The notes under the pieces: generated by a model
What the model was told of the DNA's origin: nothing
Seen by the model: the letters and a program-made list of their open reading frames with translations, nothing else
Databases searched by the model: none
DNA from: Malacoraja senta
Taxonomy: Eukaryota
Assembly: GCA_038087875.1 (NCBI GenBank)
Contig: CM075990.1
Location: forward strand, 16,184,001 to 16,248,000
Direction: 5' to 3'
DNA: 64,000 nucleotides
Translations under genes and position numbers: made by a program
In this document: positions 1,931 to 61,783 of the stretch, one piece after another
How positions within the stretch are numbered: the stretch's first letter is position 1
Layout: every line of letters begins with the position of its first letter

Positions 1931-2895
1931 CTACAATACAGGAGAGACAATTAGCCTCACGGCCTCCCACGTGGTTTCCATGCTGTATCTTTCAATCAAA
2001 AACACAACTCTTGCATTGCAGCAGTTTAAAAAAAAAAAATTCACATTAATTAGACACTGGTAATTCTTCTGTAATGCGAGAGTTGCGTTTTTGATCGAAA
2101 GATACAGCATGGAACCACTCCCTTCGGCCCATCGAGTCACACTGATCATCAATCCCCCATTCATAAATGTTCTATAAACACAAAATGCTGGAGTAACTCA
2201 GCAGGACAGGCAGCATCTCTGGATAGAAGGAATGGGTGACGTTTCGGGCCGAGACCCTTCTTCAGACTCAGGATGTCACCCATTCCTTCTATCCAGAGAT
2301 GCTGCCTGTTCCGCTGAGTTACTCCAGCATTTTGCGTCTATCTTTGGTGTAAAGACAGCAGCCGAGGTCAGGATAAATCCTGGGTTTCTGGCACTGTGAG
2401 GCAGCAGCTCTACCCGCTGCATCACTGTGCAACCTAAGGAATCACAAGTTATAGAAAATGTGTTTAAAAAAAACCCAAATGCATCAATAAGGAAAGGGGA
2501 TCCGAGTGTTTCAGATTCATAATAACAAAGTTAATTTTCCCCACAAGATTTTCAAAAATAAATGGTCTTTTCAGTGGCAATAAGTTTACTTTTCTTACTG
2601 CAACTAAATTTACTAAAGACCGTTTCATGGCCTCCAACGTTAAAGTAGCAGCTGTGTCTTTAAGAGACCATGGTGACTGATTACTGCGAGGGGGTCACAT
2701 GAAAACAAGTATTTGTTCCCTTATACTGTTTATATCCAAGACAGCTTTTTTTCTGTCTGTCGATTTCCAAAAAAACTTTTAAGTTATTATCAAATTCCCG
2801 ACCGAAATTGTGCTCTGCAAGGTAATGTTTCCTAATTGATCATTAACAAAACTATCTCAAATACATTTTACCCCAAATGAACTTAGCGCACCTAC

Positions 2896-3011
2896 CTCTC
2901 CACTCTCCAAAACGACTGCTTGTTCTTCCAACTCAATATCAATGACACGGCCTTGCTTGAAGTTCTCTCCAAATGTTTCTTTGAATGGAATGAATGTTTT
3001 CTTTGCAAATC
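2896..3011 (-). CDS. AIFM2: AIFM2/FSP1 copy A, coding exon 2
   Basis: 116 nt, cag|GA...GAG|gtagg; (G)[38 protein letters not shown]. Confidence 0.95.
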
Positions 3012-3593
3012 CTGACAAAAGTAAAAACGTAACTAAAGGGAATATTTTGAAAAAGTGGACGTTTTCACGTTTCCTATGTAGGGAACATTTGCAGCATATT
3101 ACATCTTGCAGGGTCATTCATGGATTAGTATGGTCACATGCACAGAGACACAATCAAGAACTTTGTTTAGTTGCAAAAGTACTTCGCTCAATGGACAGTA
3201 AATCGTTGCAATTTTCCACATCAGACTGCTCTGGGTGCTCCCTCTGTGGTTAAACTCACAGCTGTGTTCAAGAGTTTTTGAATAGTAACAGGATGAAGTG
3301 TCATGGAAAATGGTTTTATCTCTTATCTAATATTGCAAGCTGTCAATTCTGTTCGTCTGCCAAGGTGGAAGATTGATTAAACACAACGGGCGGCACGGTG
3401 ACACAGCGGTCGAGTTGCTGCCTCACAGCGCCAGAGAACTGTGTCCCAAGTTCGATCCTAACTACGGATGCTTGTCTGTACGGAGTTTGTAAGCTCTCCC
3501 TGTGATCTGCGTGGGGTTTCTCCGTGATCTTCGGTTTCCTCCCACACTCCAAAGATGTACAGGTGTGTAGGTTAATTGGCTTGGTATAAATGT

Positions 3594-3634
<41 letters not shown>

Positions 3635-4052: not shown

Positions 4053-5091
4053 GTCGTGTCTGGGGAAAAGAAAACATAGGGGAGGGGATGGGGGAGAAAG
4101 GATATTTTAACAAATGTGTTCAGAAGTAGCGATATTAGTTAGACAAACTGGGTCAGGCAGCATCAGGGGAGGGAATGGACAGGCAACGTTTCAGGTCAGC
4201 CATGATCACATTAAATGGCAGTGCTGGCTCGAAGGGCCGAATGGCCTACTCCTGCACCTATTGTCAGGACCCTTCTCCAGACCCGCTGAGTTCCTCTAGC
4301 ACTTTGTGCTTTACTCAAGATCCCACCATCTGCAGTTCTTTGTGTCTACATGGACTGGATTTTACAGCTTTGCATCAATAATAGAAAACAAATTCATATC
4401 AGAAGTGAGTAGGAAAGAACTGCAGATGCTGGTTTGAATCGAAGATAGACAAAAAATGCTGGAGCAACTCAGCGGGACAGGCAACATCTCTGGAGAGGAG
4501 GAATGGGTGAAGTTTCAGGGCGAGACCCTTCTTCAGACCCGAAACGTCACCCATTCCTCCTCTTCAGAGATGTTGCCTGTCCCGCTGAGTTACTCCAGCA
4601 TTTTGTGTCTACCTTCATATCAGAAGTAATAGGAGCAGAATTAGACCATTCGGCCCATCGCTTGGTTGTTAATTTCAAGCAACCAGCGAGAAAGTTAAAC
4701 TGTCTGGTAAGATTGAAAGATTGTCGAACTGAAAGGTGAACTCTGCTTCTCTCTGCGTGACCTGCTGAGTATTTCCACTGGGTTTGTCTTCTGTTTACAG
4801 CGTTGTGTTCTTCTGAATGTAGGCAGAACAGTAACCGCTAGGTGGGAGAAAGAAAACTCCGTTGACTGTCGCTGTTAGAAACAGTTCAACATACAAACCC
4901 GGTTAGCTGGAGCTGGAGCGGCGTTCTGTTGTTGCTGTTTTTAAACCAGCTGGTTAGTCCGGTTTGTAAACTGGTCCCAAACTCGCGTCCAAGTTCTTGT
5001 TGACTCGCGGAAGTAGACAAAATGTTGCTCTAATGTTAGTTTCACTTCAAACGTTACACTGGTGGAAATGTTCAAGTCAATAAAAGCTCAC

Positions 5092-5345: not shown

Positions 5346-5520
5346 GAGAATCGAAGAATTGCAGATAAAACTCGCAAAAAGGCACAAAGTGCTGGAGTGA
5401 CTCAGCAGCTCGTCGCATCTCTGGAGAACATGGATAGGTCTGAAGAAGGATCTCGACCCGAAACGTCACCCATTCCTTCTCTGGAGATGCTGCCTGCCCC
5501 GCTGAGTTTCTGCAGCATTT

Positions 5521-5941
5521 AAGTTTATTGGCCAAGTATTCACATACAAGGAATTTGCCTTGGTGCTCCGCCCACAAGTAACAACATGACATACAGTGAC
5601 AGTTACGAATGACTCAGAAAACACTAAACATGAATAATAATAAAACATTAATGATAAAACACCATTGATCAAGCATGTGAACCAACAAAATACCAGATCA
5701 AAGGGAGGCTACAGATTTTTGGCTGTTGAGTAGAGCAACTACTCGTGGATAAAAACTGTTTTTATGTCTGGCTGTGGCAGCTTTGACAGTCCGGAGTCGC
5801 CTTCCAGAGGGAAGTGATTCAAAGAGTTTGTGGCCAGGGTGAGAGGGGTCAGAGATGATCTTGCCCGCTCGCTTCCTGGCCCTTGCAGTGTACAGTTCAT
5901 CAATGGAGGGAAGGTTGCAGCCAATAACCTTCTCTCCTTCT
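5521..5941 (-). mobile_element. 3' fragment of a Rex1-like LINE; nearly identical copy at 46823-47177
   Basis: IISDPSHPGHKLFESLPSGRRLR...KNSFYPRVVALLN; AATAAA plus (CTTA)n tail. Confidence 0.8.
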
Positions 5942-8486: not shown

Positions 8487-10226
8487 CTAAGATGGGAGAA
8501 GTTCACAGCATCAGTCACCCGAGATCAGGACACCAATGACCGACATTACTCAGGGCTTTGGTGAACATACTATAGGCCCATAAAGACGCTGCCAAAAGCA
8601 AGGAAGGAAAAGAGATGAAATGTAAAGGAAGCAACCGGAGAAGCTGATTTACACTGAAGATAGACACAAAATCCTGGAGTAACTCAGCGGGACAGGCTGT
8701 ATCTCTGGAGGGAAGGAATGGGTGACGTTTCGGGTCGGGACAGAAGATGTGTCTCGACCCGAAACGTCATCCATTCCTTCTCTCCAGAGATGCCACCTGT
8801 CCCGTTAAGTTAATCCATCCAGCCTGTCCCGTTGAGACTCCAGATAGATAGTCTCTCCAGACTATCTATCTCCAACATAGATAGTCTTATCTAAGGAGAT
8901 GAAATGTAGTGTTTATGATGCCTGGAGCTTTAAATGGGATTTTTTGTGTTGCATGCCCTTACATTCTCTTTAAACTTTAGACTTTAGAGATACGGGCCCA
9001 ATTTCCTCTGTCAGTGCAAAGTTGCAATTTTTCACGAACCACTTTTGGCAAAACCACATATATTCTGACAGAAATCATATTTTTTAACGCGATTGAAATC
9101 TGAAGAAGGGTTTCGGCCCGAAACGTTGCCTATCTCCTTCGCTCCATAGATGCTGCTGCACCCGCTGAGTTTCTCCAGCATTTTTGTGTACCTCCTATCT
9201 CATTACATGACTTGCTGCTACAGTTCAGTCAGACAGCATACTGGATGGGCTGTGAGTTGCTCACAGGAGGTTGCACCACCTAGAGGTAAGATTCTGCTCC
9301 ATGCACTGAATGCAGAGACAAAGCTCAAGTACACTGAGGTGGGCACTTCGCAGCAAGAGAGTCAAGAATGTTTTGTTGTCATATGTCCCAGATAGAACAA
9401 TGACATTCTTACTTGCAGCAGCTTAACAGAATATGTAAAATTAGTACAGTGTAAACAATATTATAGAAAACAAAGTTCAGTGTGTGTAGATCTACACATA
9501 CCCACATATACATACAAACACACACAGATATATATATATATATATATAGAAATATATATATACATACAGTGTATATATACACACATGCACACATACATAC
9601 ACATAAAAAACAAACAATATTAGCGCAATAATAACAATAAAAGTCTATGTAGTTCAGAGCTTATTTGGAGTTTGTAGTGTTTAATAGCCTATTGACTGTA
9701 GGGAAGAAGCTGTTCCTGAACCTGGACGTTACAGATTTCAGGCTCCTGTACCTTCTTCCCGATGGCATGGGGTGAAATGAGTGAGTGGCCAGGGTGGTGT
9801 GGGTCTCTGACGATGCCCCTCAACCTTAGACCATTCATGAAGGGTTGCTTACCTTGCGAAAAAATGTTTTTTTCTTCTTCTTTATTTTACTTTATCTATG
9901 TTTAAGTTACATTTGGTTAAGGTATTTTAAATATTTTTTAAATAAACACTCCCCTCATCCTTTTACCACTCTTCCATTCTCTCTTTAACAAAACAACTAA
10001 ATTTGTGTGCAATTTTCCAAATGTTATCTAACCAAGGTTCTATATAGGGCTGAATGGCCTACTCCTGCACCTATTGTCTATTGTCTATTGTCTATGTAGG
10101 TTCCTAATACTTTTGAGTTCCCCCTAAATATTACCCTGAAATATCACAAACTATTTTACCATGTGAATTATGCTATTTAATTGACAACCATTTCAACCTT
10201 CTGGAGTGCGTTTCCAGCATATCTAC

Positions 10227-18962: not shown

Positions 18963-19053
18963 GGTACACAAAAATGCTGGAGAAACTCAGCGGGTGCAGC
19001 AGCATCTATGGAGCGAAGGAAATAGGTAACGTTTCGGGTCGAAACCCTTCTTC
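18963..19053 (-). mobile_element. Penelope-like terminal-repeat insertion with hammerhead core (19028-19055)
   Basis: 14-bp TSD AGGCTGACAGTGAG at 18949 and 19054. Confidence 0.8.
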
Positions 19054-21792
19054 AGGCTGACAGTGAGAATGAGTTGGGCTCTGAGCCATCAGGAGACGTT
19101 AACATTGCACCTGAATCCCATGGCATCTTGTCCAGACTAATGATGCTGCAAGTGCTTACAGTGTTCGTTGGGTGGAAACTGTTGAGAGAGTGAGAGCGTT
19201 GGTATGGGAGAGGATGGATTAAAGCAAGAAACTTGAACGGAATTTAGCTTGTTGAAATTGTTTTGTTTGCTATATGTTATCTGTGAGTATTGTCAAAGAT
19301 TCATAGAGTCATGCGACACAGAAACAGGTGCTTTGGCCCAACTCGTCCATGCTGAACAATGAGCCCCATCTAAGCTGGTCCCATTTGTCTGCATTTGGTC
19401 CATGTCCTTCTAAACCTTTCCTATCCGTGTCCAAGTGTATTTATAGTACCTGACTCAACTACTTCCGCTGGCCGCTCGTTGCATATACTCTTCACCCTCT
19501 GTCCAATCACTCTATTTATTCTCTTCATGATCTCATACACCTCTATAATATCACCCTTCAGCTTCCTGCATTCCAAGGAATAAAGCCCTAGTCTGTCCAA
19601 TCTCTCCCTATAGCTCAGCCCCTCAAATCCTGGCAACATCTCGTGAATTTTCTCACAGAGAGTGGTGAGTCTGTGGAATTCTCTGCCTCAGAGGGCGGTG
19701 GAGGCAGGTTCTCTGGATGCTTTCAAGAGAGAGCTAGATAGGGGTCTTAAAAATAGCGGAGTCAGGGGATATGGGGAGAAGGCAGGAACGGGGTACTGAT
19801 TGAGGATGATCAACCATGATCACATTGAATGGCAGTACTGGCTCGAAGGGTCGAATGGCCTACTCCTGCACCTATTGTCTATTGTCTATTGTCTATTGAA
19901 TCCTCTCTACTATTGAATCCTTTCCATTTTAATGACATTGTGTTTACAAGCCTGTTATGCTGCTGCTGAATTTCAGTGTTCTGTTTTCGGTACATATGGC
20001 AATCAAACCTTCTTGAAAGCATGAATATCAATATGGCCACTGCATAAATGTTAGTCATTTGACTGTTTGCAACTGTTCTGATCGAGAAGCAGATTAGCAG
20101 ATGGAACAGGTGTCTGCTGAGAAAATGTAATTAGTTATATTTTCCAAACTAAAATCTGCGGAGCAGTTTCATAAAATTTATTCTGTTATCATCTATTAAA
20201 CTTACAACCAAAATGAACCAGATTTTCTTATCTGAAAATACCGCAATAATTCCACTTGCAAAACAAAATGTTGGTCACAATTTCCCTCAAAGCTGCAGGA
20301 ACTCCTATTTCTGGAGCAAATCCAGAAGACTTCAATAAAAAAAGTTATGGAAAGAATAGTTTCCTTGCAAATTGCCTTTTAAAAGTCTCTGAGCAATCAT
20401 TGTATTGTTGGCATGCTGTGGCGTAAATTAATTGAGGTCTTTAAAATAATGAAAGGTTTTGATAGAGTGGCTGCAGTGAATATGTTGGCATATTCAAAGC
20501 TAAAGTCCATGGATACAAGAGAGTTATCAAGAAATCGTGGAAGGATGTCAGAAGCAGAAATCAAACTGCAGGAGGAACTCAGCAGGTCAGGCAGCATCTA
20601 TGGAGGGAAATGGACAGACAACATTTTGTGCTGGGACCCTTCTTCAAACTTTTTGCTGAACACGTACAGTGCCAGAGACTTGAGTTCATTTCTGACCTCA
20701 AGTGTTGCCTGTGTGGAGTTTGCACCTTCTCCCTGGGACCAGTTTCATCCCACATCCCAAAGATGTACATGTTTGTAGGTTAATTGGCCACTAAGTTGCC
20801 ATGAGTGTATAGGAAGTGGATGGGAAAGTGGGAACTAGTGTGAATGGGTGATCAATGGTCAGCATGAACTTGATGGGCTGAAAGGCCTGTGCCCATGCTG
20901 TATCTTTCTGTCCAGGCTAATCTTTGATTAATACGCGTGTCTGAGGTTATGGGGAGAAGACAGGAGATTGGGTTTAGGAAGGAAATGGAGATTAGGCATC
21001 ATTAACTGGTGGAGTAGACTTGATGGGCCGAATGGCCTAATTCCACTCCTGCCACTTATGACCTTAAGCTCTTTCAATCATTTCAATTAATGTCACTTGT
21101 GCCTCTAGGATTTTCCAGAAGACTTATTTTGCCAAAATGCCAAATCGACATTTCTAGCACAGGAAAGATGAAGTCCGAAGCAGGGTCTCGACTCGAAACG
21201 TTGCCTATTCCTTCTCTCCATAGATGCTGCCTTACCCGCTAAGTTTCTCAAGCATTTTTGTCTACCTTCGATTTTTCCAGCATCTGCAGTTCTCTCTTAA
21301 GCAAATAAAAGTGAAGCGGAGGCTGGGCAAACAGTGAGGGAGGCGGGAACAGAGGGTTAGGCTGTTAGATTTAATTCAGGAAAGATAGGAGAAAGAGAGG
21401 AACAGGGGTAGTTGGAGTAGCACTCCATTTTATAAGTCATTGCCTGCAAGAGATTACTTGGAGAACCAGATGGAGACCAGAATTAGTCACCTAGAACAGC
21501 AGGCAGCCTCTCCAGAAATAGTGGCTAATCACACCACAGATTAAACCCCACTTATTGTGGCACAGATGGCCCAGTGAAGTCTGAGATCATTGTTGTTGAC
21601 TACATCTGCGCTGGAGTTGTAATGGCCAAAGATATTTTCATTTGGCAGCCTTGCAATTGATCAGTGCTGCAGTTGTCTACACCAGGCTTACTGGGTTGAT
21701 GGTCTAAGCTCAAGAAAACCCATTCATTGTGCCCTGGACTGGCTCCAGAACAAATGAACAGGAAAGTTTGAACTGAATGCTGTTGTAAATCT

Positions 21793-38758: not shown

Positions 38759-40443
38759 TATGTCTTGTAATAATATGAAGGGTCACAGAGCAGAGGACTT
38801 TGGATTTGAATCATTAGGCAGAGCTTTAACAGATTGAGGAAATACATTGCTACTGATTTATTATTGTCACGTGCATGAGATACAGTGAAAAAACAATGCT
38901 ATCCAGTGAAATTATACTGTACATGAGTAAAATCAAACTGTACACGTCCAACAGATAGTACAAAGAGAAAAAAATACCAGAGTGCAGAATATAGTGTGAC
39001 ATTGTTATAGCATTTTAATTACAGGGAAAGTGCATATTAAAAAAGTACAAGGGCGCTATTAGATAGGTTGGGAGATCAGGATTCCCCCTTGTTTATAGAG
39101 GACCATTCAGCATCCTGATAACAGCAGGTAAGAAGCTGTTCCTGAATCTGGTGGTATGTGCTTTCAAACTTTTGTATAGACTGATCGACGGGAGAGGAGA
39201 GACGAGGGAATGACTGGGCTGTAAATGGTCCTTGAATGGAATGGAATACGTTATTGTCACATGTGACAAGGCACAGTGAAATTCTGTGCTTGCATATCCA
39301 AGGTATACAAACAGCTGCCACATAAAGGGCACTGACAACGTTACTAAGTACCCCCGCCGGATCCTCCTTTGTTCTCCCCCCACCCCTCCCCTCACCTCCC
39401 CCCCCCACTTGTGGTGGCCCCCCCACACCGAGTCCTCCATTGTTCTTCCCCTCCCCCCTTCACAACGGTTCCACCGCGCCCTCATCAACCGCCGCGCCGC
39501 GGGTCGACCGGAATGGAGGTTGGTACTGGGCTTCCTCATCCATGCCCCAGTATCGGGTACCATTGCCACAAATCTGGTGGCATCGTGTGTTTGTTGTTTC
39601 ACTGAGGATGGGGCATCAGCAAGTACCTCTCCGATTAAGGCATTACTGTTAATGATATCTGTTACCAGATGTTAACAGAACCAGCGACTAGAATTTGGGG
39701 ATCAACTTTTATTACAGAAACTGGGGACTTCTAATCCAATTAATGAAAAAAATCTTGATTAAGTAATATACAAGATTGTGACTGAATTAGATAGGGTGGA
39801 CTGGGTGAAACTGTTCTCTTTAATGGGTAGGTTTAAAACCTGATGGATCACAGCAATACCCATGAAAACAGACCCTCTGGCCCATTGAGCCCTTGACATC
39901 AAACACCCATTTACACTAATTCCTCACTAATCACATTTTCTCATCACATTCCCATCGACTGCTCCCAAATTCTACCACTCGGATATAAAATGGAGGTAAC
40001 CTACAACGGATAATTAACCAAACAACTACAGGTCTTTGGTATGTGAAAGGAAACCAAAATGGTCACACAAAAACATGCTGATTATGCTGCCAAATTTCTC
40101 ACGTTGCCCAGCACATCTCCTTTAAACTTTGCCCCTCTCACCTTAAAGCCATGCCTCCAGTGTTTGTCATTTGCACCTGGGAAAAAGGTTTAGACTGTCT
40201 ACCTCATCTACTCCCCCTGATTTTTTGGCCCCTCCATTAAGGAAAGTAAGTATTTCCTAATTACTCCCTTGAGGTCCCTTATGCCCCAATTAAATACCCG
40301 GTCAGCCCTCTCAGTCCTAGCCCACCCAAACATTTCTCATTGCTACCCGTTTCCCATTTCTGCTGGATCCCTCTATTCCCTGCTCCATGTGAGAGTGTTG
40401 GAGAGAAGTAATTGAGTCACCTGAGCCAAACTTTTAAACGCAG

Positions 40444-43961: not shown

Positions 43962-44256
43962 AAGGATGTGGCTGATTAGTGACAGAGCTGGGCTCTACTT
44001 CCACTCAAACTCCATCCAATGGACCGGGTGCAGAAAATAGACCCAGTGGGGCATTGTGATGATCTAGGTACTCTACACTGGGTCTATGCCAGTGGAACAG
44101 CAGAAATCCAGTGTCACGTAGCTGAGTAAGTCGCAGTTTTCTGTGTCTCATAGAGTTATGGAGCCACAGAGTCAGAGTCACACAGCACAGAAACCCAACT
44201 CCAATCCAACGTGTCCTTTGGACTAAATCTCTTGTGTTTTTTGTACTCTTTTACAG

Positions 44257-44820
44257 ACTTCTGGCAAAGGGCATTTGGCAGACTTTTTGTTGCAATCTAA
44301 AGATAACCCCATGCAAGTCGTAGGAGTGGTAGCTGGAATCATTGGCTTTTTTGTGGTTCTGACTGTCATGATTTCATCGGTCATGTTCTGGCGGAACAAG
44401 AAGTCCAATAGAATTGGTCCGGTGAGACGAATCATAAAGCGACGGTCCGGCTGGAAGCTGCAAGCACGACGATCGAAGTGGTTCCACAGCAAGAAGTCGA
44501 CCCAAACGCGAGGCAGCTTCATGACTTCAACGGGAGACCAGCACCTGCCGACTGTTAGCAGCCTCAACAGCCGCCCAGCACTTCAACTGGCTTTGCCAAG
44601 AGCACCCATGCTTCCTCCCCCCATATCTACGCACCCAACCAGACTCCATAAGCCCAAACGAGACATCCCATCCGTGTCAGGGACCATCAGTCCCAAAAGA
44701 AGCTGCGTCCCCCAGCAATCAAAGGGCAAGGCATCGAACATCAACAGCGCTCTGGTGTCAGAACTCAAAATGCGTCTGGAGAGAAAAATGAATGAAGATG
44801 CTTCCAGGTTGTACTTGTAG
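44257..44820 (+). CDS. CDHR1: CDHR1 terminal exon (transmembrane plus long cytoplasmic tail)
   Basis: ttttacag|ACT; TSGKGHLADFLLQSKDNPMQVVGVVAG...MFWRNKKSN...SGTISP...ALVSELKMRLE...LYL*; AATAAA at 44944 and 45003. Confidence 0.95.
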   Translation, partial: TSGKGHLADFLLQSKDNPMQVVGVVAGIIGFFVVLTVMISSVMFWRNKKSNRIGPVRRIIKRRSGWKLQARRSKWFHSKKSTQTRGSFMTSTGDQHLPTVSSLNSRPALQLALPRAPMLPPPISTHPTRLHKPKRDIPSVSGTISPKRSCVPQQSKGKASNINSALVSELKMRLERKMNEDASRLYL

Positions 44821-44822
44821 GA

Positions 44823-44917
44823 GGTACACAAAAATGCTGGAGAAACTCAGCGGGTGCAGCAGCATCTATGGAGCGAAGGAAATAGGTAACGTTTCGGGCC
44901 GAAACCCTTCTTCAGAC
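44823..44917 (-). mobile_element. Penelope-like terminal-repeat insertion with hammerhead core (44888-44915) at the CDHR1 stop codon
   Basis: 13-bp TSD TGTACTTGTAGGA at 44810 and 44918. Confidence 0.8.
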
Positions 44918-45540: not shown

Positions 45541-48527
45541 AATAATGTCAAAGCTTATGTGTGACATAACACAATCAAAGGCAAGAAGCCATTTTAGCAA
45601 ACAAAGCCACAAAGTGCTGGAGTAACTCAGCGGGTCAGGTGGCATCTGTGGAGAAAAAGAATAGATCATGTTTTGGGTCGGGACCCGTCTTCAAACTGAT
45701 TTGAGCAACTTATGTTTATATTTGTGATTGCTGACTCTAGGATTTTGTTGGTTTTTATTTTGAACTTCAATTTGGAAATAATACACAATTGGGTTTCAAA
45801 ATTTTTAAAAACGGGATTACCTTTTCCCATCAATTTCGGGATGTGTCAATGTGAACAATTTTGTTGTCATTTTTGCCACATTGGAAACTATGGTGACATA
45901 TCAGATTAGCAAGATTAATTAGCAAGACATTGCATTAAAAAAAAATATGTACATTGTGCAAAAAAATAAGCACATTTGTTACGATTTGCAATTTGAGCAA
46001 ATGGAATATTGATTAGATCATGTTTTGTTATAATATGTTACTTGTGAGACTTGAACCTCCACAAGGTCCTTTTGTGTTATTTTGTTCGAAATGATTAAAG
46101 CTCTTGCCAATAGGACATTGATCACATATTTTGTGTTATGACATGTTGGCAGAGAAGTGTTTTGTGTGCTTATATGAAATTACTTCTGTTTTATAGCAGC
46201 ATTTTAAAGGATTAATGTGATTATTAAAATAGCGAAGGAAGACTTTTGTATAAACTTATTAGATTCTCCCTAAGTTACTGTGGAAAAATCTCACTGCCAT
46301 GTAGATAAATGAGGATGGTCTTCCCAATGAAACATTCAATTGAATCTGCTTGCTATAGGTTGAATGTGTAGGAAACAACTGCAGATGTTGGTTTACAGTA
46401 AAGATACACACAAAATGCTGGAGTAACTCAGCAAGTCATGCAGCATCTCTGGGGAAAAGTAATAGGTGACGTTTTGGAAGTGTCCTGACCCAAAACGTCA
46501 CCTACGTTTTGGGTCAGGACACTTCCAAAACGTCACCTATTACTTTTCCCCAGAGATGCTGCATGACCTGCTGAGTTAGTCCAGCATTTTGTGTTCATCT
46601 CTGTGAAAGGTTGAATATATTTAAGGGTTTCCCCTGGCTTAACTAAAACACTGTCCAAATGAAGGTTGGTGGAAGGATACAGCAAATTATCTTTGATCCT
46701 TTATCCTGGGGACAGTGTGAGGGGGATGAAAGAGGAAAGGAGAGGAGGGAATGTCTGAAGAGTTGGCATGTGGTCTTTCATCAGCATCTAGCATTGTAGG
46801 CAGGTGGCGAAAAAACAGAAAGTAAGTAAGTAAGTAAGTAAGTTTATTGGCCAAGTATTCACATACAAGGAATTTGCCTTGGTGCTCCGCCCACAAGTAA
46901 CAATATGACATACAGTAACAGTTACGAATGACTCAGAAAACACTAAACATTAATAATAATAAAACATTAATGATAAAACACCATTGATCAAGCATGTGAA
47001 CCAACAAAATACCAGATCAAAGGGAGGCTACAGATTTTTGGCTGTTGAGTAGAGCAACTACTCGTGGATAAAAACTGTTTTTATGTCTGGCTGTGGCAGC
47101 TTTAACAGTCCGGAGTCGCCTTCCAGAGGGAAGTGATTCAAAGAGTTTGTGGCCAGGGTGAGAGGGGTCAGAGATGACCCAATAAAAGCGAGCCATGCTG
47201 AAAGAATTAATGTCTTTCACATCTTTTGATGGTGGATTTGCACTTCATCTGTTTTCAATGCACCTCAGGAATACTTCATGGGAATATGTAGAACTCATTA
47301 TACCTCCATCTTCTCTCCAGCCCCAGAAAGCTAAAACAAATTCAGTTTAGTGAATAGCCCTGGTTTATCCAGTTATTAGTATAGATCTTCTAAAAGTACA
47401 ATTTACAATATTTTCTTAGCGTTCAAATATATATTGATTTGTATTTTATATTGCTTTGATAAATAAAAGTTGATGATTCTGATTCAGTACAACTACTGTT
47501 TGTGTTTCATACAGAACTATGTTTATTTCAGCTAAACATTAATTTCATCCGAAAGTGACAAGTGATCATCGAACTTTCACTACTATCTGCTCTCTATAAA
47601 ACTATATGGATTACCTACATACTTGCAAGAAAATGTATCATGTATTCTATTGGTTTGGTTTATTGGTACATTATTATTTTTACGTGTACCGAGATATAGA
47701 GGAAGAACCTTGCCCTGCCTGCTATCCAAGCCAATCATCCCATATATGATTACATCAGGTTACGCAAACAGAGTGCAGAAGTTACAACTATTGGGCTGCA
47801 GCTAGAAATAAGTTATAAATTAAAAAGTGCAAGGGCTGCAAAAAGGTAGATTGGAAGATCAAGAATTCATGCCTTGCATATGAGAGTTCAAGAGTCTGAT
47901 AACAGCAGGAAATAAGTTCTTGAATCTGATGTTGCATGCTTTAATACCCATTTAGATGAACATCCAGCTATACATTTTACATTCTGAATCAGATTTATAC
48001 TTGGTATAAAACTATGATCATTGGGTGCCTATGTTCGTGCTTCTCTGTCCCTTGTGGGGAGGGGGGGAGGGGGGGAGGGGGGGAGGGTGATCTGATACAG
48101 GTGTATAAAATCATGAGGACAAAAGATAGAGTGAAGACACCAGGTCTTTTTCCCACGGTAGCACAATCAAGAACTAGGGGGCATAGGTTAAGGTGAGAGG
48201 TGGAAAGATTTAATAGGAACCTTTTCACACAGAGGGCAGATGTTGTGCGGAAAGAGCTACCAAATGAAGTTAAAGATATTTGGACAGATACATGGATAGA
48301 AAAGGTTAAAAGGGATATAGGCCAAGTGCAGGCAAATGGGATTTCTTTGGATGGGCCATCTTGGTCGGCATGGACGAGATGGACTGAAGGGTCTGTTTCC
48401 ATGTCGTGTTCCATTCTATGGCTCTCTAACATCAGTATTCTTCTGACAAGGGCCATTTTATATCAGGATAGCGGAAAGGTTATGCCATTGTTTCATATTA
48501 ATAAGAACCAGGATGAGACTACTGTAG

Positions 48528-48621
48528 TCTGAAGAAGGGTTTCGGCCCGAAACGTCACCTATTTCCTTCGCTCCATAGATGCTGCGGCACCCGCTGAGTT
48601 TCTCCAGCATTTTTGTGTACC
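48528..48621 (+). mobile_element. Penelope-like terminal-repeat insertion with a minimal hammerhead core (48529-48556)
   Basis: CTGAAGA-A-GGGT TTCG GCCC-GAAAC-GTC; 14-bp TSD TGAGACTACTGTAG at 48514 and 48622. Confidence 0.8.
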
Positions 48622-51600
48622 TGAGACTACTGTAGAATGTTCAGTTCAGACCATTGCAGCAAGCCAGAAAAAGAGGCTTTTGTTCCATTAAGCTGGACTC
48701 ATTTTACAAGAAAGACAAGAGCAGATTAACTCCTGTTTAAAATCCTGAAGATTAAACTCCATCTATTTCAACAGCAGGTAACCCACTTTTAAAATCTATT
48801 TCTAAATGCAATTTGCTGTACGTATGCTAATTTATGTCAAGGTTTGGCTAATAATTGCAAATTAAATGAAGTCATTGGAAAGAATATCTACAAGATATTT
48901 GAATAGAATTACATTATTGTATGTAGTTCAAAAGGAGGCCGTTCACAAACAGGCCATTTGATGCAATTAGCCCATGTCTGTGTTAATGCTTTATTGTACC
49001 CCTCATCTATGTGTAGGAAAGAACTGCAGTTGCTGGTTTAAATCGAAAATAGACACAAAATGCTGGAATAACTCAGCGGGACAGGCAGCATCTCTGGAGA
49101 GAAGGAATGGGTGACGCTTCGGTCTGAAGAAGGGTTTCGACCCGAAACGTAGCCCTCATCTAAAAATATATTCTCTTCTCCTTCACATTCTTGACCAGCC
49201 TCCTCTTAAATGCATCTATACTACTCACATCAGTCGTTTTCTGCTTTAATCAGTTTGATTTTAATTTTATGGTTAATCGGGTAATTTTTATTCAATTAAT
49301 ATTAGTTTCTAATACTTTTTAAGGTAGCAATAAAATATCATTGAGCGGCTACTTTTCTGTGGTCTCTTGGGCAGCTTGGATGAATCTTGGTCTGCATGGA
49401 TAATTTCGGCCAAAGAGCCTGTTTCCATGCTGTATTAGAGTCGCTTGCCTCTACAGCACTGGAGGCCCGGGTTCAATCCTGACCACGGGTGCTGCTGTAT
49501 GAACTTTGTACGTTCTCCCTGTGGCCACGTGGGGTTTTTCTGGGTGGTCAGGTTTCTTACCACATTCCAAAGATGTAAAGGTGTATAGGTTAATTGGCTT
49601 TGGTAAAGATTGTCAATTGTCCCTTGTGTGTAGGATGGTGCAAGTGTACAGGGATCGCTGGTTGGCGCAGACTCGGTGGATCAAAGGGCCTGTTTCTGCA
49701 CTGTATCTAAACTAAACTAAGTTAAACACGATGACTATGAAGTGGGAGTGCTTGGTATCATGTATAAGAAGTATAACTATATTTCGGAGGCAGAAAAGTG
49801 AGAACGTGGTAAAGATAGGTCATCTGTAAGTAGAAATTTTGCATTACAAAAGGAAAGGGAGAAAAGGAAGTGACCAGAAAATATTGTTACATAAATAGTA
49901 AAGCAGAATTCCATGAAGATCTGCTTCCAGGGTGTTAACGCAAGATGATACAAAGGGATTTTGTAACATGTTTCCTTTGCTTCACAGTAGAACCCTGCAG
50001 TGAATTATACTGCTTCATTCAAACATTGTCACACAAGATGCAACGCATTTTTTGTCTCCCTACAACACACCTGCAATTAGTATAAGAACAGACCAAACTA
50101 ACTAAACATTGCAGCTAACCTACCAATAAGATGGCTCACGTTATATTAAGCACCTTCAGCCACTGTATCCAAGGACTGAAACCTAGAACAAATGCCAGAG
50201 GCACAGTGCATGGAATTTTAATCCGGATATAGCCTAGATTTTAGCTGGATCAATTAGATGACCCTGTGTAAGCAGCTTTCCTCTCCTTTCCTCTCAATAT
50301 GCTCCTCTCATTTAAAATTATCATCTTCCATTTGATGGAAATTGATTTTAGCTAGACTATACTTGTTTTATTCATTATTTTTTTGAGATGTGGACATTGC
50401 TGCCGTTTAATATCCTTGATGAGACACGGCCATTTTAAGGAATAATTCCAGTCCTTCAGGTGAAGTCAGCTCCACAATACTGTTAGGTATTCCACTGAGG
50501 CTGCCAGGATTTATTTCCAGTGATAAAGAAAGAACGACAAGATATTTCCAAATCAGTACGGTGCAGAAGTGGGAGAAACTACAATGTTCTAAAACTGTTG
50601 GTTCTGGGGACTGACAAATTCTGTTGCATTTCCAATGATCTTAAAAGAAACGGCTGGTAAGATAGTTGATGGATTGATTTTAGTTTGCCAAGATTCCTGA
50701 GATTAAGATGTCTGAAGAAAGGTCCTGACCTATAGTATCACCTACATTGTTCTCCAGAGATGCTGCCTGACCTGTTGAGTCACTCCAGCACTTTGTATCT
50801 TTTGTTTCTAACAAACATTCTTGTAGCTATTGTCCTTACTGAGGTGAGATAGATACGTCAGAGTTGCCCAGGGGAGTGACTACAGTGTTTCCTACGAGTG
50901 GCATACACAGCAACCAATCAATAACGGTGATGGAAAACATGAATATCTAGGGTGCCAATTAACTTGGCTGTTTGTCTTGGATGCTGTTGAGTTTTTCTTC
51001 ATCTCGAGAATTTGGGAAAACCAAAATCAATGCGTCAACTATCTTACCAGCCATTTTTAACACCCTTGGCAGTACATCAGAGTTTGTCAGCCGCCAGCTC
51101 CAACCATTTGTTGTGTACTACTTCGCCTAAGATTGCAATATTCTCCACTTCCTGCCTCCCTTCCAACTCATGATTGGTGACTATGAGATACTCTATGACT
51201 TGTAATCCACATAGTGAAGCCCATTGTAAAATATCTGTCTAATTCATCTGCCATCTCTTTATTTTCCATGATCAATTCCCCACACTAACTTTCCAAAGGA
51301 CTAAGGCCACGTTTATGTTTTTGATCATCTGTAGAAACTTACCGTCTGGTTTTAAATTTATGACTAACTTAATCTCATACTGTCATTCTTTGCTTGTTAA
51401 ACTTTTGATCATTTTTGCTGTTTTTGTATTATTATGATTACCAGAATTAGATCTAATTCAGATTAGATTGAGATCTAACTATTCCTTTGGTTTCTGTTTC
51501 ATTCACAAGAAGAAGACCTGAATTACTATGTCCACACTTAACTTGAAACTACCCAAGTATGTCTATCACAGCATATAACAGCATCTTCCCACTATCAAGT

Positions 51601-52590
51601 ACATTGGGGCCTGTCAGTTCTGGGACTAATATCACATTTGAAAGCATTGTGTAGGAAGGAACTGCAGAAGTTAGTTTACACTGAAGATAGACACAAAATG
51701 CTGGAGTAACTCAGCGGGACAGGCAGCATCCCTGGAGAGAAGGAATGGGTGATGTTTCAGGTCGAGACCCTTCTTCAGACAGAGCTGAATAGAAATACAA
51801 TAGAAAGCATTGTTGAGAAACTCAGCCATTAACACTGCTTCACAATTTATTGCAAAGGTTTTTATTTCTATATATAATATGTAACATCACATCAAAATAC
51901 ATATAAGATCTTAAGGTGCAGATTGAATTCTACCCTTGTTATAATTCCCTCTATGTGAGATACAGGATATCAACAGGAATTTAATTTTAATTTCCCACCT
52001 GTATGCCCATCATTGGACATGGCATAAACCCACTAACTGTACAATACAATACAATACAATACAATACAATAATACTTTATTAGCCAAGTGTGTTTTGCAA
52101 CATACGAGCAATTTCATTTGCCAAGTCAGTCATACAAATAAAAAGCAACGGAACACATTTTAACATAAACATCCACCACAGTGACTCCTCCACATTCCTC
52201 ACTGCGATGGAAGGCAAAAATAAAAGTTCAAATCTCTTCCATATTGTGAACAGTAGTGGAATATATACTAGGCTTTTAGTGCTAAACATGAAATATCCAC
52301 GAATCATTAAGTCAGAAGATGGACACAAAAAGCTGGAATAACTCAGCGGGACAGGCAACATCTCTGGAGAGAAGGAATGGGTGACGTTTCGGGTCGAGAC
52401 CCTTCTTCAGACTTCATTAAGCCAGTGTTGTTTAGCAATCACAAGAAGACACAAAGTGCACCTCTGGAGAATATGGACAGGTGACGTTTTGGGTCTGAGT
52501 TGAGTTACTCCAGCACTTTGTGTTTTTTTCTTTAAACCAGCGTCTGCGGTTCCTTGTGCCTACATTATCTATATTAATAATCAGTTGGTC

Positions 52591-53399
52591 CTAATACAAT
52601 TCATCGCTGGTTTTGAGTTCAGCTTTGGCCTTGTGGGTTTTATCATCTGACTTTTTGCGCCTCCTCTTGTCTTCTTTGGAGGCTCTGTTGCAGAGTTCCG
52701 CATCGCTCCCCATCTGCAGGCTGTCGAAGGTGACGTTCTGAGCCGCCTTCCTCAGCGCCTTGTCACCTCGCCTCGGTCGCCGACAGGCCTTGGCACATTT
52801 GTCAAAGCAGCAGCTGAAGCGGGTGTCAGTGGTGCAGGCGTACATGCCAGCGGGTACCGCCAACACCATGGCGCAAGCAATGACGATGATGTGGATCAGC
52901 TTCTCCCTCTGCTCCATTTCACTGACATCGGTGCCTGTCACAAATACAATGCACTGCCCTCTCGAGGGAGATTGGTTCCTCAGTGCCACACACACTTTGT
53001 ACTTTGTTGCTGGGTACAGCTCATTAATGGAGTAAGTATTCACCCCCGGTGCTATGTAAATCTTTTCCGTGCTGGGATCATCGAACTTGCCAAAGTGCAG
53101 CGTGTACCAGGTCTCAGATGGGTTCAGCGTTACTGCATGCCACTTCAATACTATCCCGTACACCATCTGCTTTGCAATGCTGACATCTATATAAACATTC
53201 TCCTCCCCGGGTGATGATGGGGGCAGATACGAGGGCATGGGTAAAGTTACTGAAGTCAAGGTTTTCACCAGGATCTGTACAGACGAGTTTCCCAGATAGT
53301 TGGCAGCACAGCAAATATAAACTCCTCCATCAGTCCCCTGTGCTGAAGGAACGACCAGCTCCGAATTCACAGTTTCTTCATCAACACTTGTGTGTTTCA
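52591..53399 (-). CDS. LRIT2: LRIT2 exon 3 (Ig C-terminal half, FN3, TM, tail)
   Basis: acag|TG; DGGVYICCAANYLG, FN3 (PATKYKVCV), REKLIHIIVIACAMVLAVPAGMY transmembrane segment; stop at 52591. Confidence 0.93.
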
Positions 53400-53461
53400 C
53401 TGTAATTAATGGAAAGAATTGGTTAAGTAATGGAATGATTAAGGGGGAAAAAAATCGCATC

Positions 53462-53767
53462 TGAATCGAGGACCACAGGACATAGGTTCAAGGTGAAGGG
53501 GAAAAGATTTAATAGGAATCTGAGGGGTAACTTTTTCACACAAAAGGTGGTGGGTGTCTGGAACAAGCTGCCAGAGGAGGTAGTTGAGGCTGGGATTATC
53601 CTAACGTTTAAGAAACAGTTAGACAGGTACATGGATAGGACACGTTTGGAGGGATATGGACCAAGCGCAGGCAGGTGGGACTAGTGTAGCTGGGACATGT
53701 TGGCCGGTGTGGGCAAGTTGGGGGCAAAGGGCCTGTTTCTATACTCTATCACTCTATCACTCTATGA
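53462..53767 (+). mobile_element. CR1 3' fragment filling most of LRIT2 intron 2
   Basis: FFTQKVVGVWNKLPEEVVEAG...FKKQLDRYMD plus tail (CTCTAT)n. Confidence 0.85.
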
Positions 53768-53772
53768 CATAC

Positions 53773-54554
53773 CGTTAATTTTCCGAATGATCTTCACACC
53801 ACTTGTCCACCACACTGTGGGAGTAGGATTCCCTTTAGCTGTACAGGATAAATGTACTTTCTGTCCAAACGGAGCACTAACGTTCATGTTTTCAGATGTG
53901 ACTGATGGTTTGAAGCAACTCTTCAGTTCCACTTTGTAGAAAAAGACGCCTGCCCTGGAATCTGGTCCTGAACAGGTTAGGTAAGAGTTCATCAGAATAA
54001 TAGGGGGGCTGATGGATTTGAGGAAGTGTACAAAACCTTTAAGGCGACAGTCACAGAACCAGGGGTTGTCGTGGAGAGCCAGGAGAGCATTGGCGATACC
54101 ATCCCGTGGACCATCATTCTGTTGTGTTCTCTGATAGACCGTCCAATTTAAGAACACGTTTCCAGAAACCACAGTAAGCCTGTTGAACGATAAGTCCAGA
54201 TAGGTCAAGTTGGTCAGATACCTCAGTGCGCTCTCTGGAAGGGCATCCAATCGATTACGTTTTAAATCCAATATTTTCAAAGCTGGGCAGTCCTGGAAAG
54301 TTGTCCATGGGATTGAACGCAGTTTGTTTCCTTGTAGACGTAGCTCTGATAATTTGCCGAGCCCTTGCATGCATCTTGTATGCATGACTGTAATGTTATT
54401 AAAGTTCAGCCACAGGTATTCCAAGGTAGGGTTTGAAGAAAATGCACCTTGGGGCAATTCCGCCAGGTGTGAATTTTCTATCCTGATTTTTTTAACATCG
54501 GATGGGATGTTCCCTGGTATTCTTCGTAGAGCTGAGTTCATGCAAATCAAACTC
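53773..54554 (-). CDS. LRIT2: LRIT2 exon 2 (LRRs, LRRCT, Ig start)
   Basis: 782 nt, cag|G...AACG|gtatg; LxxLxLxxN repeats, LHDNPWFCDCRL, LSCTAKGNPTPTVWW. Confidence 0.93.
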
Positions 54555-54627
54555 CTGAGAAATAAAATGTATGCCTGTGATTTAATATACATATAAATAA
54601 ACACTGCTTTGCAAACATCAGTATTGT

Positions 54628-54633
<6 letters not shown>

Positions 54634-54660
<27 letters not shown>

Positions 54661-54699
54661 GCAATATTGATATCTACATTGTATATATGTATATATATG

Positions 54700-57360: not shown

Positions 57361-57840
57361 AGGTAGACAAAAGTGCTGGAGAAACTCAGCGGGTGCGGCA
57401 GCATCTATGGAGCGAAGGAAATAGGCAACGTTTCGGGTCGAAACCCGTCTTCAGACTGATGCGGGGTGGGGGGGGGGGGCGGGAAGAAGAAAGGAAGAGG
57501 AGGAGCCAGAGGGCTGAGGGAGAGCTGGGAAGGGGTGGAGACAACAAGGGCTACCGGAAATTGGAGAAGTCAATGTTCAAGCCGCTGGGATGCCCTTGCT
57601 GTCTCCTCCCCTTCCCAGCTCTTCATCAGCCCTCTGGCTCCTCCTCTTCCTTTCTTCTTCCCATCCCCCCCCCCCCCCCCCCCGCCCCCCTCCCACCCTG
57701 CATCAGTCTGAAGAAGGGTTTCGGCCCGATATGTTGCCTATTTCCTTCGCTCCATAGATGCTGCCTCACCCGCTGAGTTTCTCCAGCACTTTTGTCTACC
57801 TTCGACTTTCCAGCATCTGCAGTTCCTTCTTGAACAAACA
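57361..57840. mobile_element. Inverted (fold-back) Penelope-like insertion retaining the endonuclease C-terminus
   Basis: About 190-bp inverted arms; spacer reads HPSGLNIDFSNFR* on the minus strand; 12-bp TSD ATTCTTTCTCCA at 57349 and 57841. Confidence 0.8.
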
Positions 57841-59434
57841 ATTCTTTCTCCATATCCCTATAATGTTTTTTTTCTCCTCCGTTTTTCTCAATTCCCCTTT
57901 GGAGGCTCTTGTTGACTCTGTGTCCAGCCTGTAGATGAAAAACATTGACCCACTGGTTCCACAATGCGGGTTTTCCTCAATTCTTTAATGTCTCTCCTTG
58001 TAATAATATACCTTTATATGCTGATCTTTGCCATTTCAAGAAATTTAGGGGAGAGAAGAAAGTGACAGTGATAAATGTTTAAAATGGTGCTTCAAACCAT
58101 TATAATTGTTTGGTTTAATATTCAAAGTTTGACCCTATGAAAACACTAATAAGCCATTCAATTACCTCAGACAAACACTCCTGACTTGTGAACGAACCAT
58201 ATCAGCTTTAAAACTCTCACTAAAGTTTCACATAAAACACTGACATACAGCAAAGGAGGTTGAACAGTGACATTACTGAGGTATATAAAATAATGAGAGG
58301 CAAGGACAGGGTACTGTGGACAGCCAGAGTCTGCTCCCCATAGCAGAGGTGTCTCAAATTAAAGGCCAGATGTTTAAAGTGAGAGGGACAAGGTTTAGTG
58401 GACCTGAGGGGGAAATTTTTCACACACAGAGTGATTGGTATCTAGGATACGCAGCTAGAAGAGGTGGGAGAGGAAAGAACAGTAGCAACATTTGAGAGAC
58501 ATCAAGACACGTACCTGAATGAGAAAGGCATTGAGGGATATGAAATTGATGCTGGCAAGTGGCATTAGTAGAGACAGGTGTGATGGTCAGCCTAGCTGTG
58601 GTAGGCCGAAGGGCCTGCTTCTGTATTGTGCAACTCCGGGACTCCAGGTTTAGAGCAATGTGTGATGTAGATCAGATATGCAGGTGGACAAAGCATAAAA
58701 AAGGAGCACTCATTGCATAAGATAAATGTTATTGGGCTGGGATGAGCATTTTGCAGAGTAAAGTTATGATTTCTTAATAACTGCAGCGAGTTTTCCTAAA
58801 TTTAGTCGTCAGCTTCCAGAGAATTAGATATAGCAGCCTGAATATTTCATCTTACATAAAAGTTCCCTTCATAAAACAAAACAAAATCACTGCTGTTAAG
58901 TTGAAAATAATCTCCCTGGTGTTTGAAAATTTATAACTGTCAATATTTATTGAGGAGCTTTGAGACAGGAACAAAGAAGTACTTTGAAACCTGTCATCTT
59001 TGGCTTTGGTAATACATTAAAATATATGAAGTAAAAGCTAGGAATGTTTACAGATAATGGATGTTAATGTTATACAAGGTCTACTTGCAAAGTACCAAAA
59101 AAAAAAACTGCTGGAAGAACTCAGCAAACCAGGCAGTATCTGTGGAGGGAAATAGATAGTCGACATTTTGGGTTGGAGCAGAATAGCACCTGGAGATAAG
59201 AAATTACCATTTTCTTCGGCAGTGATTGTCCGTGTCTCTTTGTGAGAAGCACCGATTGCCCTCCAAGATTTCCACAAAAGATAATAGCCCTGTCCCACGG
59301 TGCGAGTTCATTACAAGAGCTCTCCTGGGTTTAAAAAAAATCAAACTCGTGGTAAGCACGGAGAATGAACGGCTTTAAGGTCCCATGTAAAGGGATAGCC
59401 ATTAGTAGTGATATGGAAACTTGAATTTCACACA

Positions 59435-59550
59435 AAGTGCTGCGTAATATGCTGGTTGGCATCTGATGAAAGTCAGTACATGCCTCTCACCCAAGTGCTG
59501 CGTAATATGCTGGTTGGCATCTGATGAAAGTCAGTACATGCCTCTCACCC
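59435..59550. repeat. Perfect 58-bp tandem duplication
   Basis: AAGTGCTGCGTAATATGCTGGTTGGCATCTGATGAAAGTCAGTACATGCCTCTCACCC twice. Confidence 0.95.
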
Positions 59551-61783
59551 AGTTTATCCAAACGTCTTGTAATTTCTGATGTTCTTCTACTCTCTTACTA
59601 GTTTAGTTTAGGGATACAGCATGGAACAGGCCTTTCGGCCCACTGAGTTCGTGCTGACCAGCGATCCCCGCACATTAATGCTATACTATACACACGAGGG
59701 ACAATTTATAATGTTACCAAGCCATTTAACCTACAAACCTGTACGTCTTTGGAGTATGGGAGGATACCGGAGCACACAGAGAAAACCTACGCAGGTCACG
59801 GGGAGAACATACCAACACCGTACAGGCAAGCACCCGTAGACTGAATCGAACCCTGATCTCTGGCGCTGTAAGGCAGCAACTCTACCGCTGAGCCACCGTG
59901 CCACCCTACTCTCTTAATCATAAGAAAGACGTGAGATGTTTCCGTTTCACGTTGTATTGATGTTTAATGTATATGCATTATCTGAATCAATTTGTCATAC
60001 ATTGGTAAAAACACTTCAATTACATTGATGTGAGTGAGCTGGAAAACTTCTAAACCCCAGTTGAATGATCATTCAAGCCAAACACCTCCCCACTAATTGA
60101 GCCAATATATAATATCATTTTCAGTTGAAAATGCAGCAATTAATAGTTTATCCAAATGGATACTAGTTCTGTCCAAAGTGTCTTAAGATCTAGGACGCAA
60201 CTACTTGCAAGGCAATTAACAAAAAAGATCAGCCTGAAGAAGGGTCTCGACCCGAAACGCCACCCATACCTTCTCTCCAGAGATGCTGCCTGTCCCGCTG
60301 AGTTACTCCAGCATTTTGTGTCTATCTTCAGTTTTAACAAAAATGAAGCACAATGTTGAAGTTGATTAGAAGGAGCATGGGTTTCCTCTGGATGTATCGG
60401 TTTCCTCCCACATCCCCAAGACGTGCGGGATTGTGGGTTAATTGGACTCTGTAAATTGTCCCTTGTGTGTAGGCAGTGGATGCAAAGGTGGGATAGCATA
60501 GAACTAGTTAGAACGGCTGTTTGTTGATCGGTGTGGACTCGATAGGCTGAAGGATCTGTTTCCAAGCTGTATCTATAAACTAAACTTAATTAAGTGCCCA
60601 AAGCATCAACAGAATTATTTTAACAAGATTTGGAAAAATAAAGAAAAATGGTCCAATATGAGATTTGCCATTATACAGGAAATCTACCACTGTCTACTCT
60701 CTCTCTTCTGTTGAATACTCTTCCACTTTAAACCATTTGAAAGAAGCACTGGGAGTGGGATCACATAAGAATGTAAATAGAGTCCTGGTCTAATCTCCCA
60801 TCTGATGCAAGGCTCATCAAACACTGCAACACCACAATGATACTGCACTCGAATATTGTCTTCAAATCTCTGAAGCTGGACTTGCATATGTATCTGAGAA
60901 AGCCACCAATATCAAAGAGATTGAACTCCCCTCGATGGTCAATGGCATTAACATCACCAAACCTCCGATCTTCAACAATGCACAAGCCAGCAGTTTAGAG
61001 TCATACAGCACGGAAACAGGCCCTTCGATCCAACTTGCCCATGCCGACCGAGATTCCCCACCTATCGTAGTCCCACTTACCCACGGTTTGTCCCATATCC
61101 GTCTAAACCTTTCCTATCCATGTACTTGTCAGGTTGCGAGCAACACCACATCATTCAAGACGGTTGATGACATCCAGTAGAAGATGGTAGTAAAACTTCA
61201 TCCCCGCCACTTTAAGCACTCATTCACAACCTGTACATTGCGGATGTAGTGTGCACTAACTATAAGGAGTTCTACTCACCAAAGCTTCTTATACCCTTGG
61301 CCTCATCACCTAAAAGAACAAGAGTGGCCAGGGAATTGAAACAGCAATGTCTGCATGTTCCCCTCCAAGTCATACACAACCTTGACTCGGAAATATGTTG
61401 CCCTCGTTCCTTATAACTGGGATCAACATTCTGGAATTCCTTACCCTACAACACGTTAATGCATGGAACACCATGATCCAAGACCACCATCTTCATAAGA
61501 TGCAATTTGTAGTTGGTAATGAGCAATAAATATTGCTCTGCCATCAACTTTTGCAACCTCTGAAAGAATAACTGGTGACTTTTGCCGAAATAAATCCCAA
61601 CAATAGATTTATAGTATGACTATAAAAATATTTGGATTTTTGGTTGATCTATTGATGTGTTGGGAAATTATGACCGGCTTGCATCACATTATCCTGTGGC
61701 CAAGCTCAAATGGGGAGATCCTCATCTTTAAAAATGTATTTCTCTTCCATAATGTTCTCATCCTCCACGTGAATATGACTCAA

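Follow-up and report, generated by a model that had tools for sequence, protein, structure and literature searches.

Minimal hammerhead ribozymes have been described in both pseudo-long terminal repeats (pLTRs) of metazoan Penelope-like elements (PLEs), where most are dispersed, solitary motifs that stem from truncated copies (Cervera and De la Pena 2014, PMC4209133). PLEs of the Neptune and Nematis types, which carry an endonuclease (EN+), are known from Craig et al. (2021, PMC8557442). For Poseidon from Anolis carolinensis (PAc), an optional tail has been explained by priming at two sites within an RNA that is not cleaved (Frangieh et al. 2024, PMC11167929). Animal non-LTR retrozymes are non-coding, PLE-derived units with type I hammerheads and have been reported from one chondrichthyan (bioRxiv 10.64898/2026.07.22.740005). 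Solo pLTRs and initiator-like words in pLTRs have been noted (PMC3846280), and a promoter and an intron have been described for Penelope (PMC2377424). According to PMC8557442 and PMC11167929, the function of hammerheads in PLEs is not yet settled. Here, a short repeat in 64,000 nt of the Malacoraja senta genome (assembly GCA_038087875.1, contig CM075990.1, positions 16,184,001 to 16,248,000; this whole stretch is called the window) is compared with these systems. In all likelihood the repeat is the pLTR of a young autonomous PLE and carries a minimal type I hammerhead motif, which probably cleaves only together with a second copy or with the element protein.

The parent Penelope-like element

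The route to the parent element is a longer copy in the window (57361-57591, minus strand) with a pyrimidine-rich 3' untranslated region (UTR) and the last codons of a GIY-YIG open reading frame (ORF). It leads to genome loci where the motif is preceded, on its own strand and at a distance of about 120 nt, by the end of a frame for reverse transcriptase (RT) and GIY-YIG. All 112 scored genome matches to a 365-amino-acid piece of the RT and endonuclease are 97-100% identical. At locus L104 a single RT and GIY-YIG ORF is placed between two pLTRs in a unit of 3,891 nt (about 3.9 kb). Intact ORFs of this kind have 1,188-1,264 amino acids and lie between two repeat copies; 20 of the 21 starts at the same ATG in a set of 20 loci chosen for long frames give ORFs of more than 1,150 amino acids. 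The core of the motif is found 163-164 nt before the ATG and 118-119 nt past the stop codon in most of these long-frame loci, and the pLTR is composed of the end of the 3' UTR, the ribozyme motif and the start of the 5' UTR. The core and 3' UTR of a preceding unit stand upstream of 21 of 23 ORF starts, which is the arrangement of partial-tandem pseudo-LTRs, also present at L104 and L097. The Penelope link proposed in an earlier sequence-only reading of the window is thus borne out by the ORF between two repeat copies and by parent copies of near identity. Being the pLTR of a coding element, the repeat is not a short interspersed element (SINE) by origin.

The Pfam GIY-YIG model matched with E 2.9e-6 (L050, over the cut-off) and RVT_1 with E 2.6e-6 (L028, under the cut-off). 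Relatives of the parent protein carry the same RT and GIY-YIG domains, and the DKG, YIDD, C-x4-C-x2-C and CCHH (C-x2-C...H...H) motifs align with those relatives. The nearest named proteins are from sharks and rays with 65-73% identity. The DKG, C-x4-C-x2-C and CCHH motifs are of the Neptune/Nematis type, a putative placement made from motifs. Features shared with those elements (PMC8557442) are the single ORF with RT followed by a C-terminal GIY-YIG domain, the CX2-5CxxC linker, CCHH and DKG, as well as partial tandems, inverted 5'-truncated copies and a tail of 30-40 bp. In contrast to the roughly 900 amino acids of relatives, the ORF has about 1,210 amino acids with a long Pro/Thr-rich insert, and unlike in the Neptune/Nematis elements no microsatellite target bias is evident in the flanks seen. 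With PAc (PMC11167929) the element shares two internal RT start sites that bound the tail, copies that span the ribozyme site and a ribozyme at the junction of pLTR and ORF. The ORF of PAc starts inside the ribozyme; in the present element the ATG follows at a distance of 163 nt, and the 5' UTR contains both RT start sites. By every testable feature the element is an EN+ PLE with a minimal hammerhead, an already-known class; no published description of this particular family was found in the papers searched.

The family is abundant. A looser intact-core pattern gives 59,004 cores in the 1.94-Gb assembly and the exact 28-nt core pattern 41,995, with 0 in the reversed control of each; some contigs of the assembly are duplicated, so the true numbers are somewhat lower. 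About 9,000 motifs in Xenopus and 4,000 in coelacanth were obtained with different search methods (PMC4209133). A repeat profile built from seven window copies found 92 segments, 4.0% of the bases, in twenty 10-kb blocks from ten large contigs (200 kb). In the window it found 59 segments covering 5,183 bases (8.1%, about twice the average of the sampled blocks), and 0 in five shuffles. The 59 segments merge into 37 loci, close to the count of about 35 made by eye in the sequence-only reading. Its claims of high copy number and recent mobility agree with the number of intact cores and the 97-100% identity of parent copies.

The minimal hammerhead motif

The motif matches the minimal-hammerhead consensus, CUGANGA...GAAA...UH, with an extra base and G10.1-C11.1. 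Helix III is a loopless palindrome, ACGU in the intact cores and in most distant relatives. A motif of the same kind was described in 2014 and is as such already known: CUGANGA, one extra base, a G-C-closed helix II, GAAA, a loopless palindromic helix III and NUH are common to both (PMC4209133). With 4 bp for helix II and 2 bp for helix I, the present motif lies near the lower limit of helix length, and the part of the published alignment considered here contains no cartilaginous fish.

The strict pattern CTGANGA-N10-25-GAAACGTH, scanned across the window, gives 14 cores compared with a mean of 0.02 and a maximum of 1 in 100 shuffles, and the nine cores cited in the sequence-only reading are all at the positions given there. 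In most of the 59 profile segments the core is broken or missing. All four stem II pairs are kept in 11 of the 14 cores, and helix I has 0-3 bp; eight of the 14 combine a full stem II with at least two helix I pairs, so the caveat that helix I is only about 2 bp was right. The same reading had noted a kept stem II with a varied loop. The stem holds for the 11 cores, but the loop varies mainly between two common letters at two positions, plus CpG decay, and the copy with an ACCG loop at 30564 has a shifted and shortened stem. No hammerhead model of Rfam matched the window at E values up to 1. The Rfam microRNA matches in the window are long inverted pairs and fall under the cut-offs of their models.

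Distant relatives were available from 80 metagenome loci of 30-63% identity, 23 of which have room after the ORF. The motif occurs within 500 nt after the ORF in eight of these 23, and others carry it before the ORF, compared with 0-1 matches per shuffled set. Position 1 of helix I pairs in 17 of 17 distant motifs, with four pair types, in a scan that did not require helix I. Helix I covaries across these relatives, although in the present family it is only 2 bp long and the third pair is A-C. The minimal type I reading of the motif is supported by the fit to the consensus and by distant relatives, in which the core is retained in the same location and the helices covary. That the core is more conserved than its flanks is true only in part. 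A second common letter is present in none of ten core columns compared with 20 of 66 downstream columns (p = 0.037), but the downstream blocks +42-56 and +61-80 (positions are counted from the first core base as +1, with negative numbers upstream of the core) are as constant as the core.

Several points speak against a bare RNA that cleaves. Helix I ends at 2 bp, while position 3 is paired in all 15 distant motifs scored for it (15 of 15). The hammerhead is not the lowest-energy structure predicted, its probability being close to zero in each of five copies, and in the young subfamily a rival hairpin that buries GAAAC is predicted with a probability of about 0.94. The young subfamily also has a GUU site, and GUU is a weaker cleavage site than GUC. 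CpG decay hits G12 in about 27% of unselected copies. It is rather unlikely that in this lineage the motif is a relic that no longer cleaves and is kept only as a protein-binding or promoter sequence. The short helix I, the GUU site and the dominant rival folds would fit a relic, as would the fact that every copy reaching the motif spans the site, and ribozyme mutants had no effect on insertion in vitro in PAc (PMC11167929). However, the core columns show no change at the level of lineages, the common changes in stem II and helix I (A or G opposite U) keep pairing, the site stays C or U, and published PLE motifs with a 2-bp helix I exist (PMC4209133, supplement). We prefer a hammerhead for which cleavage likely needs a partner copy or a protein, with most genomic copies likely dead.

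Copy ends and the source of short copies

Copy ends were studied in a sample selected with a 34-nt anchor that lies on the downstream side of the motif and has 29,965 matches in the genome; the sample comprises 78 copies, or 74 after removal of four duplicates. The 3' ends of the 78 are bimodal, at about +93 or at +121-132, and the two classes are separated by an optional tail of 35 nt. Four tail-bearing copies were folded, and in three of them a stem between +48-55 and the tail is predicted with a probability of about 0.9; in the fourth a letter is changed in the motif used to locate the stem. The letters of the stem are nearly invariant and give no covariation support. Upstream, 20 of the 74 young copies extend beyond -13 into the 3' UTR and ORF and one more ends at -13.

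The 5' ends pile up at the front edge of the ribozyme. At -6 to +4, 28 of the 74 copies end, one of which (L123) is a longer copy of another subfamily, leaving 27. The rate of 5' ends per base is 6.6% at -6 to +4, 0.46% at -40 to -7 and 0.11% beyond. The same picture is given by genome matches, 16,371 with two upstream bases compared with 9,376 with six, and by copies with host DNA directly upstream (105 of 155, where identical long flanks were collapsed so that long copies are undercounted): agreement with the element letters is 84% at -1 in these 105 and has dropped to background by -7. A target duplication flanks 32 of the 105; its length ranges over 9-17 bp and is mostly 13-14 bp. In a sample of 211 bystander copies the bins at -3 and -1 are inflated by two reference copies without upstream sequence, and the pile-up rests on the other samples. 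No description of such a pile-up was found in the papers searched, and it is not mentioned for PAc in the parts of PMC11167929 considered.

The stop depends on where synthesis began. Of 49 copies, 27 stop at -6 to +4 in the repeat that initiates reverse transcription, whereas none of 21 full-length copies ends at that edge in the upstream repeat (0 of 20 without the duplicate L277/L278, p = 4e-6, a count that keeps tandem neighbours in L270 and L275 as separate entries). With the matched sequence variant alone, a stop in six of 17 copies still gives p = 0.005 against the full-length copies. The stop is thus tied to the edge sequence together with the repeat where synthesis starts. A fixed intrinsic RT stall at the edge sequence, and a full-length RNA starting at the initiator-like word TCAGT, are both ruled out by the full-length copies, none of 21 of which ends there. 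Ends at the cleavage site were also considered; five of the 78 anchor copies end at +29/+30, but there is no peak among the bystander copies.

Short RNAs that begin at the edge and a protein roadblock both remain as explanations, and short RNAs are preferred in what is close to an even choice. A more far-reaching reading, which is rather unlikely, is that the PLE enzyme copies in trans a dedicated short RNA or a small circle, with the front edge of the ribozyme marking its 5' end. The PLE would then make SINE-like progeny, several hundred thousand copies or about 4% of the sampled DNA, from a ribozyme-headed RNA of 100-200 nt without an RNA polymerase III promoter, and the 1.5-turn insertion described below would be a remnant of such a circle. 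In the cycle that we favour, the element protein would bind the stem just downstream of the motif and nick host DNA, and reverse transcription would begin at an internal position, +93 or about +128 relative to the core; these sites may act like those of the anole enzyme. The RT would copy through the uncleaved motif, so that genomic copies span the cleavage site. Many complementary DNAs (cDNAs) would end 2-5 nt before the core, most likely since the pool of short RNA begins there, with TCAGT as the initiator-like word, and give copies of 95-135 nt; long read-through or circular RNAs would give longer and full-length copies. After insertion the motif would decay neutrally, leaving most genomic copies likely inactive. 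Several observations count against this cycle: full-length copies never end at TCAGT, so that another source is needed for the short RNAs, 5' ends do not peak at the cleavage site (one of 211 bystander copies at +28), cap-type G is not enriched at the junctions of the 105 host-flanked copies, and microhomology can shift apparent 5' ends by a few bases.

A roadblock, in which the ribozyme of the initiating repeat is occupied by protein or by a second RNA paired with it and the cDNA is released or cut just past it, while later repeats on that RNA are unbound and passed, is rather unlikely. It would account for a stop confined to the initiating repeat and unchanged in position between the two start sites, for the missing cap-type G, and it finds a parallel in the anole hammerhead, which cleaves only with protein present (PMC11167929). 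The stop lies, however, after the whole motif has been passed and not at its entrance, and the jump from -6/-8 to +193 in the 199-nt insertion described below, a single case, is easier from short or circular RNA. Four copies (L084, L128, L151 and L159) have the first 8-12 nt of the core duplicated just upstream of the core, as if the cDNA end had re-primed, and fit either explanation. Similarly unlikely, or slightly more so, is a self-propagating non-autonomous family in which short copies are transcribed from the ribozyme edge and re-copied in trans. Short copies do far outnumber long ones (the 105 of 155, with long copies undercounted), full-length copies never end at the edge, and internal priming needs only the RNA of the repeat itself (PMC11167929). 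Against it, both +28 variants occur in short and long copies with no short-only lineage seen, for one site in a small sample, no upstream flank recurs among the 105 host-flanked copies, and the +128 class, whose tail is present in about a third of short copies (10 of 28), could not be templated by copies that stop at +93. With the whole repeat being the pLTR of the coding element, it is not a SINE in the sense of a family with its own RNA-gene-derived head or promoter and no coding parent. Of the SINE-like behaviour suggested in the sequence-only reading, a SINE-like route for the short copies is what may stand, while the repeat itself forms the ends of an autonomous element with intact copies elsewhere in this genome, and 20 of 74 young copies continue into the 3' UTR and ORF of that element. 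A boundary set by splicing is very unlikely. Long copies have a long pyrimidine tract and CAG before the core, which would be a 3' splice site, and a Penelope intron ending at helix I is described in Drosophila (PMC4209133, PMC2377424), but short copies have no common upstream exon and their target duplication often abuts the core within 0-4 nt. Nor does any GT-AG joint end at the site among the joints listed from four contig sets (three guessed to be RNA from other organisms and one of unclear kind, in contigs that show no ends, strand or level).

The worked case for a short or circular template is a tandem insertion at 23828-24133 (minus strand), dissected from its sequence, with 1.5 turns of a permuted 199-nt unit and two perfect cores with GUU sites, the upstream at 24092-24119 and the downstream at 23893-23920 (both minus strand, strict pattern). 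The unit runs from the core through the downstream stem, the tail, the 5' UTR and the first ten ORF codons, identified from L104, and rejoins 6-8 nt before the core. The insertion repeats this jump to +193, the outcome expected from a linear or circular template of 199 nt, and is flanked by a 17-bp target duplication (24136-24152 and 23812-23828). It lies inside a long interspersed element (LINE) with AP-endonuclease and RT frames (22080-25361, minus strand), which it breaks. The 199-nt junction is present at only two places in the assembly, one of them the window, which rules out a 199-nt mini-element family. Neither is the repeat an array of non-LTR retrozymes: those form tandem arrays of a fixed unit (bioRxiv 10.64898/2026.07.22.740005), whereas the present copies are dispersed 5'-truncated ends with one 199-nt tandem unit and no family of it.

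Window copies, a second element and implications

Profile and flanks define the typical short copy at 48528-48621 (plus strand), which begins 1 nt before the core, ends at +93 and has a 14-bp target duplication. Comparable copies on the minus strand are at 44823-44917, beginning 2 nt before the core with a 13-bp duplication, and at 18963-19055, beginning at the core with a 14-bp duplication that overlaps it by 2 nt. Profile and strict pattern give further short copies at 9097-9195 (plus strand, intact core 9100-9127) and 52307-52413 (minus strand, older GUC-site subfamily, intact core 52383-52410). A short copy at 60231-60342 (plus strand), found by the profile, has one change at the cleavage triplet. 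Elsewhere, one short copy (L154 and L158, contig C1:3.87-4.03 Mb) has been amplified along with the host tandem repeat, of about 2-2.5 kb, that contains it.

Head-to-head pairs make up 14 of the 37 window loci. The longer copy at 57361-57591 is paired in this way with 57592-57836 (plus strand), which has 3' UTR, a mutated core and the 35-nt tail. The profile detected pairs on both strands at 2172-2356 (intact core 2238-2265, minus strand), 49038-49155 (plus partner with core 49124-49151, cut just after the core), 4434-4626 (cores mutated) and 29531-29726 (core 29605-29632, minus strand, with a broken stem II). Many head-to-head junctions are at +10, where the motif contains a palindrome, and this suggests priming by fold-back.

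Another PLE family is also intact and shares 32% identity with the first. It is present at C14:18.24-18.41 Mb, C17:1-11 kb, C5550 and C1804 (L046-L048, L051, L052), and the first Pfam GIY-YIG genome search mostly returned this family. It forms head-to-tail arrays near contig ends, often parted by telomeric repeats (CCCTAA on the element sense strand). Its ORF1 has 597 amino acids with a weak GDSL-esterase match (E 0.004, under the cut-off) and its ORF2 has 759 amino acids with RT and GIY-YIG. About 180 nt before ORF1 is a full-size type I hammerhead (helix I of about 8 bp, helix II of 4 bp and helix III of 5 bp), which is the predicted lowest-energy fold. This telomere-associated PLE keeps its endonuclease and may be more novel than the first; PLEs adjoining telomere-like repeats in sturgeon (PMC12031113) are the sole precedent found in the literature searched.

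The window also has a Tc1-like DNA transposon (37144-38761) with 223-nt inverted ends, 96% matched, and an open transposase frame of 336 amino acids, and a 300-nt direct repeat, 99% identical, at 5520-5819 and 46839-47138. Exons of two LRR-Ig-FN3 genes, which we take to be LRIT1/LRIT2, are on the minus strand (52591-54673, 61784-62911), and a cadherin-like gene, presumably CDHR1, is on the plus strand (36792-37178, 44227-44820). Antisense within the latter, a frame at 32964-33386 (minus strand) with a GGGFGG dinucleotide-binding motif is apparently one oxidoreductase exon, assumed here to be AIFM2-like.

Unusual in this family are the abundance of intact cores and the many copies that begin at the front edge of the motif, likely from short RNAs starting there. 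For annotation, a repeat that covers 4.0% of the sampled 200 kb should be filed as PLE ends and not as a SINE or unknown repeat. If the reading as short-RNA progeny is true, the repeat would be the largest hammerhead set that we found reported for a vertebrate. As a test system the genome has 20 or more intact ORFs of near identity, young insertions in the tens of thousands whose ends can be mapped, and a naturally occurring tandem pair of the 199-nt unit, and the edge stop confined to the initiating repeat is a measurable footprint of the PLE mechanism.

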